This document shows, piece by piece, positions 16,401 through 60,730 of a DNA stretch of 64,000 bases; within the stretch, counting starts at the first letter, position 1; every line of letters starts with the position of its first letter. The DNA comes from an uncultured Methylomirabilota bacterium (GTDB taxonomy: Bacteria > Methylomirabilota > Methylomirabilia > CAVQYV01): the NCBI GenBank assembly GCA_963718295.1, contig CAVQYV010000003.1, positions 16,482 through 80,481 of the forward strand, written 5' to 3'. The translations under genes and the position numbers were made by a program. The notes under the pieces were generated by a model. That model was given only the letters and a program-made list of their open reading frames with translations, ran no database searches and was not told where the DNA came from.

Positions 16401-16570
16401 AATGCCGAATTGAGCGGCAACCGCAGACGGCGCGGTGAGGAGCGAACGCTTTCGTTCGCGGAATCGCGCCAGCCAGGCGGCAGCCCCTCCTCGCAGGGGG
16501 TGCCGCTCGAACCACTTGTTCGCGCCCCGGGCGGCGCGAACAAGTCATGAGAGTCGATCAATTCGGCATT
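16401..16570 (+). repeat. MITE-like intergenic repeat, copy A, most complete (170 bp, 12-13 bp perfect TIRs aatgccgaattg / caattcggcatt)
   Basis: Block order is box1 ccgaattgagcggcaaccgcagacggcgcg, a variable gaacgctttcgttcgcg, box2 ggcggcagcccc-hairpin-gggg, box3 tgccgctcgaa, then a 12-bp-stem hairpin cttgttcgcgcc/ggcgcgaacaag, then the right TIR. Confidence 0.5.
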
Positions 16571-16654
16571 CGCGCTTCTTCTTAGCGGCGCGAATGTGTG
16601 CGTCGCCCTTCGCGCGCATATCGTGCGATAGGGTAGACGCAATGGTTGTGCATC

Positions 16655-17338
16655 TCATTCGTGCTGGATTTCTTCCCATAGCGCCTTGTTGAAGGGGGCG
16701 TGGCGTGAGGGGCAGTTCTCTTTGTGGCAGACCTCACAACTGCGAAAATCTGTCTCCGTGGGAAACAAGATGCCCGACGTCGTCTTGTTGGGGATCATGA
16801 GGGATGACTCGGTTAGTCGGATGCCAAGTTTCTCCTCAACCCCGTCGAGTAGGCAGAACAGGCTTTTCTGCTGTTCAATAGGCCAAACCGAAGCGTCACC
16901 CGACCCGGGGCGCATGGTTGCCGTCTTGCCAAGACGGAACGTCTGGTGCAAGTGCTCGCTCAGGAACTTGTTGGCCACGCCAAGCAGACGAGTCTTGATC
17001 AAATCCCACCAAAACTCCTGCAGCATATCACCCTTGCACGGGAAGCCATGATCCAGTTCATGTCCACAAGTGGCGATAAGCGGAAAAACCCGTTCGACGG
17101 GTTCCAGATTGTGGGCAAGCGTCCGGCTTGTAAACCAGACATCGCCAATCTGGGTCCTGTCGCCGTCTCGCGCCGTAATGAAAGCGGCGGCGTAGGCGGC
17201 CTTCGGGCTGCCGATGCTCTGCGCCAATTCAATCAGCGAGAGCAGGTCCGCTGCGTCGCTTGACCCGACTTCAACATGGGCTTGAGCCATGATCTGGTCA
17301 GCATCCAGGGAAAACGGGATCTTGGTGAGGGTCCTCAT
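16655..17338 (-). CDS. Hypothetical protein (227 aa) with a C-terminal Cys cluster; possibly methionine-synthase activation-domain-like (uncertain)
   Basis: Start MRTLTKIP after a GGAG RBS. It ends ...FRSCEVCHKENCPSRH. The family assignment is a weak recollection only. MITE-like copies A and B flank it in direct orientation. Confidence 0.55.
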   Translation of the reverse strand: MRTLTKIPFSLDADQIMAQAHVEVGSSDAADLLSLIELAQSIGSPKAAYAAAFITARDGDRTQIGDVWFTSRTLAHNLEPVERVFPLIATCGHELDHGFPCKGDMLQEFWWDLIKTRLLGVANKFLSEHLHQTFRLGKTATMRPGSGDASVWPIEQQKSLFCLLDGVEEKLGIRLTESSLMIPNKTTSGILFPTETDFRSCEVCHKENCPSRHAPFNKALWEEIQHE

Positions 17339-17355
17339 TACATCTCCTTGGACAC

Positions 17356-17475
17356 AATGCCGAATTGAGGGGCAACCGCAGACGGCGCGTAGGAAGCAGA
17401 CCTCCCGGTCCACGACCCGTCTAAGCGCCGGCTAGGCGGCAGCCCCGTAGTGTAGGGGGTGCCGCTCGAATGGCT
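17356..17475 (+). repeat. MITE-like intergenic repeat, copy B (degenerate right end)
   Basis: aatgccgaattgaggggcaaccgcagacggcgcg ... ggcggcagccccgtagtgtagggggtgccgctcgaa. Box1, box2 and box3 are conserved, with compensatory changes in the internal hairpin relative to copy A. Confidence 0.5.
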
Positions 17476-17634
17476 TGTTGAGCAAATCACGGGAAATCAG
17501 GGAAATCAGGGACACATCCATTTTTCCCGAACCCTCGCGGGAGACCGAAGATGAGGATCGAATGCGAATCAAGAGATGGTCCCCCGGCCCGCCCGCCCCT
17601 TCCGAGCGGGGAACGGATCGCCCTAAATCGGCTC

Positions 17635-58523: not shown

Positions 58524-58726
58524 ATGCTTTATATGCTCTTATGCCTCATGCCATCGGACAGTATGCTCCGGGTCGCCGATGCCGTTATGATGCTATGCTT
58601 TTCTTGCGTCCCACCATTTTGATGCCATTTTGACAAGATATTACCATTTTTACGACACAAGCAGGCGGATGCCCCATCGTAGCCGATCTCATCTGGTCCA
58701 AGACGTTGCTCAAAGCCAATTTCCCG

Positions 58727-59878
58727 TTACGGTTCCGCTGCATGAGTCGTGGACGGTTGTTTCGCAATAGGCTCGAGATGCAAGCGGCATTCATCAACGA
58801 GCTCCTGGATCAGTTCTCGCACAGATACGATACGATCGACGCGATAGGCATTGGCGCCGCATGTGGCGAAACCCGCGCGCATGTTACCTCGATATGCGTT
58901 AACCAGTGCCTGTGCTATGCAATACGGCGACTTGTCGGGCTCGCAGGTGACAAGGCACCGATATGGGCATCTGAACTTCACCTTCTCGCCGCTCAGTATT
59001 CGATCAACAAAGCTATTTCGGATGACTCGCAGGGGAAGTTTGAGCGGACTCTGAATGACCAGGATGTCTTCCTTCCGACAGTTGAGGTAAGCCTCCTTAT
59101 ACTGCAAGGACGCATCGCATTCGTCTGTACAGACGAATCGCGTACCCATTTGGACCCCATTCGCTCCCAGATTGAGAAAGCGAGCCATATCCCTTCCGTT
59201 GAAGACACCGCCCGCCGGTATCACAGGAATCGAAATGCCATGCTCTTTCGTGTAGTTCGCCGTGACCGACAGGACGTCCTGCACAATCGATTCCAGGGGA
59301 ACATGTGAAGTGACGACGTCGTCCATTGAGAATCCAAGATGCCCCCCGGCCAAGCTCCCTTCCACAACGAAGGCATCTGGAAGCCGGTTGTGTTTTTTCA
59401 ACCACGACCGGCATATCAGGTCGGCGGCTCGTCCCGAAGAAACAATAGGGATAAGTTTGATGCTCCTGTGCTTAACCAGCGCGGGCAATTTCAGCGGCAG
59501 GCCTGCGCCCGATATGATAGCTGCGACCTCCTCTTCGTCAGCGGCCTTTACGAGGTCTTCGTAGTTAGTCACCGCGCACATGATGTTGACTGCGATCGGG
59601 TTTGGCGTCAGCAACTTGGTTTGCTGCAACATGTCTCGCAGGCTGACGTACGACCGGGCAGCATAGCTGAGGGAGCGATCTGGCCATTCTTCCCCAGTTA
59701 CCACGGATGCGACGACGCCGAGGGCGCCCTCATTCGAGACAGCGGAAGCGAGACGCGACCCCGACACACGCACGCCCATCCCACCTTGGATAATTGGAGG
59801 GTTTATTCGTAGATCGCCTATGATCAAATCCGGCAAGGACGTGACGTCCTTCATAGATATCCTTTCGGCCAATGCCAC
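58727..59878 (-). CDS. Nitronate monooxygenase (NMO/2-nitropropane dioxygenase, FabK-like) family flavoprotein
   Basis: IIQGGMGVRVSGSRLASAVSNEGALGV is the NMO FMN-binding N-terminus. 383 aa. Confidence 0.85.
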   Translation of the reverse strand: MALAERISMKDVTSLPDLIIGDLRINPPIIQGGMGVRVSGSRLASAVSNEGALGVVASVVTGEEWPDRSLSYAARSYVSLRDMLQQTKLLTPNPIAVNIMCAVTNYEDLVKAADEEEVAAIISGAGLPLKLPALVKHRSIKLIPIVSSGRAADLICRSWLKKHNRLPDAFVVEGSLAGGHLGFSMDDVVTSHVPLESIVQDVLSVTANYTKEHGISIPVIPAGGVFNGRDMARFLNLGANGVQMGTRFVCTDECDASLQYKEAYLNCRKEDILVIQSPLKLPLRVIRNSFVDRILSGEKVKFRCPYRCLVTCEPDKSPYCIAQALVNAYRGNMRAGFATCGANAYRVDRIVSVRELIQELVDECRLHLEPIAKQPSTTHAAEP

Positions 59879-59882
59879 GGCA

Positions 59883-60587
59883 TCAGCTGCGAGCGGAGCG
59901 AGCCTGCTGGATGCCGTTATCGGGCGATGGCTCGATAGTGAGCTGATTCACGATTACGTCGCAGGTCGTCACGTAGGCAAAACCAAATGCGAGGTTCAAT
60001 AGACTTGCGAGATGCATCTCCTCGTTCACTGATCCGTTTCCATCCGCCGGGAAGAACACCCGGTAGTCCCGGTAGTAAGCATCCCGCGCCGTTGATTCGC
60101 AGCACATGTTTGTCATGATGCCTGAGACGACGAGGTCCTCGACTTTGAGGCAGCGCAGCACGGTCTCGAGATCGGTGTTGTAGAACGCTGAGTAACGATG
60201 CTTGAAGACGACTTTCTCGTGTGGCATCGGAGCCAACTCCGAATGGATCTCGCTTTCAGGGCTGCCTTCGAGGCACTTACCCTTCCACCACCATCCCATG
60301 ATCCCGCTGTCGAGATCGCTAGGATGGTGAACGTGCTGGGTGAAGATCACCGGGCGGCCTGCTCGTCGAAATGCATCTACGAGGCGCCTCACAGTCGGGA
60401 GAATTGCAGCTCCGCCACATGTGAAGGTGGGAGATGCCGGGTCGAGAAAGAATTTCTGCATGTCAATCACGAGCAGGGCGCTCGCCGCCACGTTCAGCCG
60501 CATTTCGTGCTGGTTGTGAAGACTAATATGTTCCAACCACCCCTGGGTCTTGGACCCTATATTCTTGCTCGTTACATATGGTTCCAT
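59883..60587 (-). CDS. Isochorismatase-family cysteine hydrolase
   Basis: ALLVIDMQKFFLDP ... the catalytic Cys in GIMTNMCCESTARDA. An alternative shorter start is at M 60503. A GGAAAGGGA RBS precedes 60587. Confidence 0.8.
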   Translation of the reverse strand: MEPYVTSKNIGSKTQGWLEHISLHNQHEMRLNVAASALLVIDMQKFFLDPASPTFTCGGAAILPTVRRLVDAFRRAGRPVIFTQHVHHPSDLDSGIMGWWWKGKCLEGSPESEIHSELAPMPHEKVVFKHRYSAFYNTDLETVLRCLKVEDLVVSGIMTNMCCESTARDAYYRDYRVFFPADGNGSVNEEMHLASLLNLAFGFAYVTTCDVIVNQLTIEPSPDNGIQQARSARS

Positions 60588-60620
60588 AATCCCTTTCCGG
60601 ACCGTAGTCTTCGTTCGCCC

Positions 60621-60730
60621 AATGCCAAATTGAGCGGAAACCGCAGACGGCGCGTATCCATCGTACGCTTACGTTCGCCCCTTAGCCCCGGCAAGGCGGC
60701 AGCCTCGAAGGGGATGCCGCTCGAATGACT
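60621..60730 (+). repeat. MITE-like intergenic repeat, copy D
   Basis: aatgccaaattgagcggaaaccgcagacggcgcg ... cgtacgcttacgttcgcc ... ggcggcagcctcgaaggggatgccgctcgaatgac. Confidence 0.5.

Follow-up and report, generated by a model that had tools for sequence, protein, structure and literature searches.

The 64-kb stretch of DNA from an uncultured Methylomirabilota bacterium that was analysed here (the window) carries four copies of a structured intergenic repeat, called A, B, C and D, all of them on the minus strand. Copies A and B enclose a gene for a Cys-rich protein of 227 amino acids (aa), and A is followed by a phd/yefM-PIN toxin-antitoxin unit; copy C is associated with a DUF2238 gene, and copy D lies between an FGE-sulfatase gene, which ends ~40 nt before it, and an isochorismatase gene, which begins 35 nt after it. 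The remaining genes, such as those for hydantoinase/oxoprolinase-family subunits (acetone-carboxylase-like by our reading), a thiolase and an acyl-CoA ligase, serve ordinary metabolism. A first-pass annotation had proposed that the repeats are a novel family of miniature inverted-repeat transposable elements (MITEs). The evidence described below makes it highly probable that they are integron attC sites, which end gene cassettes, and that the four copies belong to one attC sequence family. The word 'novel' therefore overstates the case, because integron attC sites and gene cassettes are a known system: the sequence family is new, and its kind is well known.

A repeat family with the anatomy of attC sites

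The positions of the four copies and their common strand were borne out by motif counts and by a profile search. Copies A, B and D contain the 15-mer ACCGCAGACGGCGCG unaltered and C contains it with a single mismatch; when as many as three mismatches are allowed, it occurs seven times in the window when 1.84 occurrences are expected, a count that none of 100 shuffled sequences attained, and the pattern GGCGGCAGCC-N(5-25)-TGCCGCTCGAA, which joins the second and third conserved boxes across a hairpin, occurs three times against an expectation of 0.00. An nhmmer search of the window with a profile hidden Markov model (HMM) made from 28 full-length foreign copies, none of them from the window, returned A, B, C and D as its sole significant matches (Table 1). 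A permissive search of the window (--max, filters off, E up to 50) found no further copies, and a weak match at 44290-44328 (7 bits) was dismissed, as it lies inside overlapping open reading frames (ORFs).

Some of the boundaries in the earlier description had to be redrawn. Homology in copy C spans only ~60 nt (52155-52215), not the ~100 nt (52160-52260) assigned to it, and copy A lies where it had been placed but extends to 16594 instead of ending at 16570. The inventory was also incomplete, as a fifth hairpin site at 16595-16651, whose sequence family differs from that of copies A-D, had been overlooked. Similarly, the neighbours named for the copies (PhdYeFM, PIN, DUF2238 and isochorismatase genes) are present, but the placement of the repeats in gene leaders was only half of the picture, as they lie equally at the 3' ends of upstream genes. 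The copies end 18-76 nt ahead of a start codon (18 nt ahead of the ATG of the 227-aa gene in the case of B), their orientation is always that of the downstream gene, and neither terminator-like T-tracts nor promoters were found inside the elements.

Table 1. Features of the window and of related loci; cassette and attC labels follow the highly probable reading given in the text, and an arrow marks a crossover or element boundary
Feature	Position	Strand	Details
Copy B, complete short-form attC	17358-17483	minus	box anatomy; profile HMM match 17356-17528, 83 bits
Copy B, R''	17477-17483	minus	GCTCAAC, fits RYYYAAC
Copy B, L''	17460-17470	minus	TTcGAGCGGCA; followed by branched variable structure
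Copy B, L'	17363-17374	minus	TGCCCCTCAATT
Copy B, R'	crossover between 17358 and 17357	minus	A↓TTGTGT
Complete gene cassette	16595-17357	minus	227-aa gene and its own attC
227-aa Cys-rich gene, Met_synt_B12-like	16655-17338	minus	weak Met_synt_B12 match (Pfam)
Small canonical attC of the 227-aa cassette	16595-16651	minus	57 nt, 3 nt past the stop codon; R'' GCACAAC, L'' GCGTCTACCCT, loop, L' AGGGCGACGC, R' A↓TTCGCG
Copy A, long form, ORF-less cassette	16403-16594	minus	192 nt; A↓TT bounds both sides; profile HMM match 16401-16587, 122 bits
Copy A, leading hairpin	~16571-16594	minus	
Copy A, distal arm X1	16558-16570	minus	AATGCCGAATTGA
Copy A, 12-bp hairpin	~16510-16551	minus	
Copy A, full short-form attC	16403-16527	minus	
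Toxin-antitoxin unit	15668-16402	minus	begins at crossover TTGGCC
Toxin-antitoxin unit, own promoter	16382-16354	minus	
phd/yefM	16093-16326	minus	
PIN	15668-16096	minus	
Copy C, 3' remnant	52157-52215	minus	HMM positions 142-202 only; 3' side of terminal hairpin, L' GGCCGCTCAATT, R' C↓TTGG; 5' arm absent; profile HMM match 52155-52215, 38 bits
Copy D, complete short-form attC	60623-60738	minus	profile HMM match 60622-60753, 91 bits
Copy D, L''	60715-60725	minus	
Copy D, L'	~60627-60638	minus	
Copy D, R'	crossover between 60623 and 60622	minus	A↓TTGGGC
Homology loss at ~52365, other cassettes and ~80-nt module, locus L094	1-480 and 3323-3395		
Homology loss at ~52365, other cassettes and ~80-nt module, locus L130	750-1230 and 2394-2613		
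~80-nt module, locus L050	2980-3060		

Copies B and D, and most members of the arrays found elsewhere, have a short form which, on the gene-sense strand, reads R'' GCGCGAAC (GCTCAAC in B), a 6-nt spacer AAGTCA, L'' TT-c-GAGCGG, a side hairpin CCCC...GGGG, CTGCCGCC-TTGCCGGCGC, a terminal hairpin, CGCGCCGTCTGCGGTTG, L' CCGCTC-AA, a 5-9-nt spacer and R' RTTRRRY. The R'' box of D is degenerate (CACGAGC). Because the variable parts align poorly and the RNAalifold consensus was weak, this structure was written by hand and its pairs were counted over 61 distinct copies. The proposed hairpin is 87.9% paired in these copies, as opposed to 33-47% when the 3' partners are slid, and 51 cells are changed on both sides, as opposed to 19 in shuffles. 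The compensatory changes are concentrated in the terminal hairpin (CG to UA 23 times, GC to AU 9 times), so the earlier report of internal hairpins with preserved stems and differing loops holds, pairing being kept across copies that differ in sequence.

Several details of this hairpin are those of an attC site. The L'' box TT-c-GAGCGG pairs with L' CCGCTC-AA in 96% of cells, leaving a one-base bulge (a top-strand C and hence a bottom-strand G) in practically all 61 copies, and the spacers AAGTCA and TTCCGCC are non-complementary; the bulge corresponds to the extrahelical base of an attC site, and the spacers to its unpaired central spacer. Extrahelical bases are an established property of attC sites. 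The unpaired central spacer is part of the attC structure as described by others (Cury et al. 2016, PMC4889954). At the 3' end, conservation stops 4-8 nt past CTCAATT, at RTT and a purine-rich tetramer. An R' core RTT is found 4-8 nt after L' in 108 of 120 copies, with R (86%), R (69%), R (72%) and Y (79%) at positions 4-7 and GTTAGGC as the commonest heptamer, and in integrons the crossover at GTTRRRY takes place between bases 1 and 2 (PMC8876359). The AAC/GTT columns are 61% paired, in a region that aligns poorly as a result of the variable spacers. The short forms (116-141 nt) and the small site (57 nt) have lengths within the rough 57-141-nt range of attC sites.

Folding predictions and substitution patterns are compatible with a structure formed by DNA. 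The bottom strand folds with z = -3.0 in A, -2.4 in B and -3.5 at 16595-16651; for the latter, the (+) strand fold has an energy of -21 kcal/mol (z = -3.48) that none of 200 shuffles equalled. Once two atypical pairs are set aside, paired positions contain 36 G-T or T-G and 35 A-C or C-A combinations, a balance that gives no sign of RNA-specific selection and fits a DNA-level structure. Copy C gave an attC-like structure on neither strand (z = -0.3 and -0.5) and an alternative 5' arm gave no convincing hairpin; this copy is unable to form an attC hairpin because its 5' arm is absent. The 3' arm of the family may resemble the degenerate attC primer HS287, a likeness that we treat as a lead.

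Arrays, integrases and junctions in related loci

Relatives of the element were searched for with the exact 3' motif CGCCGTCTGCGGNNNCCNCTCAATT, read on the minus strand of the window, which is the sense of the flanking genes. The motif was present in 13 contigs of GTDB representative genomes (metagenome-assembled genomes, MAGs), labelled Auribacterota, Planctomycetota, Brocadia, Nitrospira, 'delta proteobacterium' and Pseudomonadota, and in at least 120 metagenome stretches, with no matches among the viral contigs scanned. The resulting set of 133 loci (0.58 Mb, designated by L numbers), each chosen by the 3' motif, was searched with nhmmer. The many copies elsewhere that had been foreseen were thus found, in at least 133 public loci, and the attC sequence family is widespread in sediment and groundwater metagenomes. 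Because the loci were gathered by the 3' motif, the invariance of this motif is partly a selection artefact; array members without it, in L036, have a different small hairpin at the same place, as expected of a variable terminal structure.

Two or more copies are present in 19 loci, and in all 19 they lie on a single strand, 585-2431 bp apart (median 828); L105, for example, has four copies and L036 has five. The ORFs between copies are small and mostly have no Pfam match, apart from some with cupin, FMN reductase or FRG domains. The same arrangement of sites in one orientation at the 3' ends of ORFs is seen in the window, where the order is B, gene, small attC and A, and where D follows a gene. 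An IS4-type DDE transposase gene (DDE_Tnp_1 and DUF4372; L105:127-1122, minus) was also observed 1.7 kb upstream of the four-copy array in L105, a contig on which no integrase was found.

Integrases were sought by tblastn with an IntI1 probe, and the matches were validated independently with NCBIfam. Full-length integron integrases were identified in L116, L078 and L097 (TIGR02249, 411-490 bits with a cut-off of 265), which amounts to three per 0.58 Mb of gathered DNA, and an N-terminal integrase fragment was matched in L017. The copies in L116 and L078 face away from a divergent intI, which is the layout of a classical integron, and a TTGACA-17-TATAAT promoter plus an A-rich stretch (ending ...AAG↓GT or ...AATG↓TT) lies between intI and the copies; in L078, all ORFs from intI to the copy are on the cassette strand.

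Comparison of related loci provides further evidence for cassette behaviour. For example, L030 matches L023 in its left flank and in a long form of the element, as L118 matches L108, but the members of each pair diverge from the first base past R↓TT onwards, whereas L080 and L118 share the right flank and not the left one. In addition, the 227-aa protein, for which 619 homologues were found, has relatives in L135 and L137 with 88% protein identity but different neighbours, in a long one-strand run of small genes. The DNA alignment with these loci spans the gene and the 57-nt hairpin site (R'' GCACAAC, L'' GCGTC(T)ACCCT, L' AGGG(C/T)GACGC) and stops exactly at CAC(A/G)↓TT, the homologous site in L135 ending GTTGTGA. 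These flank switches and the end of the 227-aa alignment are recombination junctions at the integron crossover. The relatives L094 and L130, which are 93% identical to the window, diverge from it at ~52365 and downstream carry a near-full element copy and other cassettes, so this position is a variable junction; copy D is kept in place in L076, which is 96% identical to the window.

The run of small one-strand genes around the homologue of the 227-aa gene comprises more than 15 genes, including those for an acetyltransferase, a phosphatase, a YoeB toxin and methyltransferases (L135, 1-12684, and L136). It has the look of a large chromosomal array of cassettes whose attC sites are heterogeneous, and none of these sites belongs to the family of copies A-D.

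Copy A and the long form of the element

Copy A represents a longer unit that is common to 35 distinct copies. In the 18 copies examined, the left boundary was always R↓TTCGCGCC, the right boundary is R↓TT, and no target-site duplication was found at the flanks (0 of 18 for k = 2-4). When the window was compared with all loci by BLAST, homology of copy A was confined to 16397-16597, with matches in more than 40 foreign loci. The long form begins with a hairpin GTTCGCGCCGC/GCGGCGCGAAC and continues through the arm X1 (AAY-N4-5-GAATTGAG) and another hairpin to an entire short-form attC. X1 departs from the reverse complement of the 3' arm by no more than 0-2 mismatches, and it co-varies with that arm over 16 variants (0.64 mismatches with its own partner versus 1.81 in cross-pairings).

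The 13-nt inverted repeat that had been reported for copy A (X1 against 16401-16413, an exact match) and its additional 12-bp hairpin are both real, and terminal inverted repeats of 12-13 nt are shared by 32 other long forms. When read on the opposite strand, however, the extra 5' part has the order R''-spacer-L''-(4-nt loop)-L'-spacer-R' and is an inverted attC copy without its terminal structure. The apparent terminal inverted repeats and extra hairpin of A exist because this inverted, stem-only copy precedes a direct one. Elsewhere, the long form comes immediately after small canonical attC sites (R'' GCATAAC, AGCTAAC, GTTTAAC or GGCTAAC; R' GTTCGCG), and therefore it behaves as a separate ORF-less cassette.

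Although no promoter-like site was found in copy A, some long forms elsewhere are preceded by a promoter module in which the hexamers of TTGACA-17-TATAAT are conserved and the 17-nt spacer varies in sequence, followed by a leader 'ATAGAATAAAnnTAAAAAATAATG↓G' that abuts the long form (L116:275-345, L114, L128 and L091). This module adjoins intI in L116 and is also present where no intI was found; the idea that promoter-bearing long forms always flank intI was rejected for this reason. A similar junction, ...AAAAAAGAATG↓TT, lies next to intI at L078:7470-7560. A second upstream module, AGAATAAAG plus a palindrome, occurs in L050, L094 and L130, and a conserved module of ~80 nt (GGGATTTGAAATCTTGGACCTCA..CTATTCTATTTTaTCAAGAATAAAG) precedes an element copy in the three loci listed in Table 1. 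The promoter/A-rich leader and AGAATAAAG modules may be attI-like or Pc-like.

The widespread palindromic ORF-less cassette and the promoter/A-rich leader module are the only unusual points of this system. It seems unlikely that the long form, of which there are copy A and at least 35 others, is a self-contained and nearly perfectly palindromic ORF-less cassette which spreads itself through the integron arrays of several phyla, and not just a decayed cassette. If it were, it might be a selfish 'attC-only' cassette, or it might have a function, for example as an insulator, as a hot spot for recombination or as an intermediate in the genesis of cassettes.

Competing explanations and place among known systems

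Several observations weigh against the identification of these repeats as attC sites. There is no IntI-like ORF in the 64-kb window, so the association with integron integrases seen for the family in L116, L078 and L097 is missing here, and the copies in the window lie 35-44 kb apart amid ordinary metabolic genes. The core sites are also atypical: only 21 of 108 R' sites fit GTTRRRY in full, those of the window are weak (ATTGG, ATTGT and CTTGG), and R'' is mostly GCGCGAAC, in which AAC is kept, or GCGCACC, both of which depart from RYYYAAC. Furthermore, the terminal structure is unusually conserved in sequence, in part as a result of the choice of loci by the 3' motif. The long form, at ~190 nt, exceeds the typical length of attC sites because it is composite, its outer stem is perfectly paired with neither an unpaired spacer nor a bulge, and some long forms follow a conserved sigma-70 promoter and A-rich leader with no intI nearby.

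As a rival explanation, a MITE, or a repeat like the repetitive extragenic palindromic (REP) or enterobacterial repetitive intergenic consensus (ERIC) sequences, would be spread by a transposase acting on terminal inverted repeats, and such repeats are indeed present in A and the other long forms, as are discrete ends, many unrelated contexts and, at 1.7 kb from the L105 array, a DDE transposase gene. Yet the 5' repeat is wholly missing from the majority of copies (the array members as well as the short forms B and D), the integron crossover R↓TT forms both ends of the unit, the arrays run strictly in one orientation with one small ORF between copies, the recurrent neighbours are integron integrases and not transposases, and target-site duplications are absent from the 18 long forms. 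Thus, the MITE or REP assignment of the first-pass annotation is contradicted and very improbable, while its view that the repeats are mobile DNA and not a dedicated riboswitch is one that we share; nor are the repeats the end of an insertion sequence. A cis-regulatory structured RNA, either riboswitch-like or a leader that is transcribed along with the downstream gene and controls it, would explain why the elements match the orientation of that gene and end 18-76 nt before its start codon, why a multi-stem fold is conserved with compensatory changes, and why a conserved TTGACA-17-TATAAT lies just upstream in several foreign loci. However, the downstream genes are mutually unrelated, the point at which conservation ends is the recombination core instead of a ribosome-binding site, a role as sensor makes no sense of truncated copies or of copies in arrays, z-scores for folding as RNA are unremarkable (-2.2 to +0.9), the balance of wobble and A-C mismatches (36 and 35) is unlike that of RNA structures, and an Rfam comparison matched no family at its gathering score and nothing relevant at permissive thresholds (the best sub-threshold scores were 12-19 bits). 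We give a dedicated RNA element very little credence; since it is known that the hairpin of an attC site can modulate how the following cassette is translated (PMC8876359), a secondary effect of this type on the next gene is possible.

It is also conceivable that the repeats are a product of chance, or promoter or terminator regions of locally duplicated, paralogous genes, given that the window contains just four copies and that these are G+C-rich hairpins between genes. This explanation has next to no probability: the motif counts far exceed those of shuffles, no T-tract terminators or internal promoters accompany the elements, and the first-pass annotation's own test, under which a total of four copies in the 5' untranslated regions of paralogous promoters would have overturned it, is answered by more than 130 foreign loci and by flanking genes that are not paralogues.

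If the repeats are attC sites, as we consider highly probable, the region around A and B would read, on the minus strand, as attC B, the 227-aa cassette with its small attC, the ORF-less cassette A and the toxin-antitoxin unit. By analogy with characterized integrons, the bottom strand of each site (the plus strand of the window) would fold into a hairpin in which paired R and L boxes flank an unpaired spacer, the extrahelical L-box base marks polarity and a variable terminal structure lies beyond. The conserved boxes of the earlier description would then correspond to the L and R boxes together with a terminal structure particular to the family, and its covarying hairpins to that terminal structure. 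IntI would be expected to recognise the R and L boxes and the extrahelical base on the folded strand and to cleave AA↓C on the bottom strand (G↓TT on the top strand), between the first and second R' bases, with strand exchange either excising the cassette as a circle or inserting it at attI or another attC. The cassettes of the window would probably be movable only by an IntI encoded elsewhere in the genome or by that of an incoming integron.

The closest known counterparts are the attC sites, or 59-base elements, of sedentary chromosomal integrons. The repeats of Vibrio cholerae (VCR) were, like those of the window, first noticed as an unexplained repeat family. The ~125-bp VCR and the family studied here have in common an imperfect palindrome of the form R''-L''...L'-R' with a GTTRRRY-type 3' core, a one-base L-box bulge, a branched variable structure, a length of ~115-135 nt, one site after each small ORF in one-orientation arrays beside IntI, and high similarity within the family. 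In contrast, R'' is mostly GCGCGAAC or GCGCACC in the present family, and R' begins with A in roughly one-third of its copies; in addition, it spans MAGs labelled with several phyla and not one genus, and the sites of the window are scattered, with no intI in 64 kb. Clusters of attC sites without an integron integrase (CALIN) and solitary attC sites, 431 of the latter in complete genomes, have been defined previously (Cury et al. 2016, PMC4889954). By these definitions 16403-17483, with three attC sites (B, the 16595-16651 site and A) within 1.1 kb and no integrase in the window, is a CALIN-type cluster, and C and D are single attC sites, D being a solitary intact site and C a decayed 3' half; it differs from a usual case in that A is composite and C is only a half-site. 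ORF-less cassettes are another known class, often promoter-bearing (PMC6557892; bioRxiv 10.1101/2023.11.21.568050), which copy A resembles in having cassette boundaries on both sides of its 192 nt and no ORF, but from which it differs in having no promoter-like site and in being nearly all attC-derived, as an inverted stem-only copy plus a direct one. The likeness to MITE and REP/ERIC repeats is limited to the short, structured, intergenic and multi-copy nature of the element and the terminal inverted repeats of the long form; arrays, R↓TT ends and the absence of target-site duplications and of a cognate transposase set it apart.

Other features of the window were also recorded. No intact attC after the PIN gene, and no attC after DUF2238, was found by inverted-repeat search and reading. 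At 15668-15705 (minus), over the stop codon at the PIN 3' end, ACGGAATTGC...AACAAGGCGCTTGAGTGAAC weakly resembles, by eye, X1 plus the R''-L'' arms; no 3' half follows and the profile search had no match there, and this segment may be a decayed attC of the toxin-antitoxin cassette. Short tandem repeats flank the cassette cluster in intergenic DNA, with GGGAAATCA repeated ~2.5 times (plus strand) and GGCGAAAAG-like units (minus), at 17489-17512 and 15540-15580. The G+C content is ~0.50-0.51 at the toxin-antitoxin unit and the DUF2238 gene and 0.53-0.62 in most other 2-kb bins. Farther away, 23589-31411 (minus) contains two hydantoinase-A-type genes (711 and 700 aa), a hydantoinase-B-type gene (692 aa) and a truncated-looking URO-D-like gene, adjoined by AMP-binding and thiolase genes in an ordinary catabolic context and not as cassettes, and 46979-51217 (minus) is occupied by an ORF of 1412 aa with no Pfam match at E <= 1e-5 and a G+C content of ~0.50-0.54.

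The relabelling of these repeats has consequences for how the region is understood. It marks the 227-aa Met_synt_B12-like gene as horizontally mobile cargo, suggests horizontal mobility for the Phd/PIN pair and the genes that flank C and D as well, and indicates that attC sites are scattered through ordinary parts of the chromosome of an uncultured bacterium. One modest point for integron biology is that a single attC family occurs across MAGs labelled Planctomycetota, Nitrospira, Auribacterota, Brocadia and delta- and other Proteobacteria, in keeping with a published proposal in which attC types track environment rather than phylogeny (PMC8352920). Another is that an ORF-less palindromic cassette is widely disseminated.

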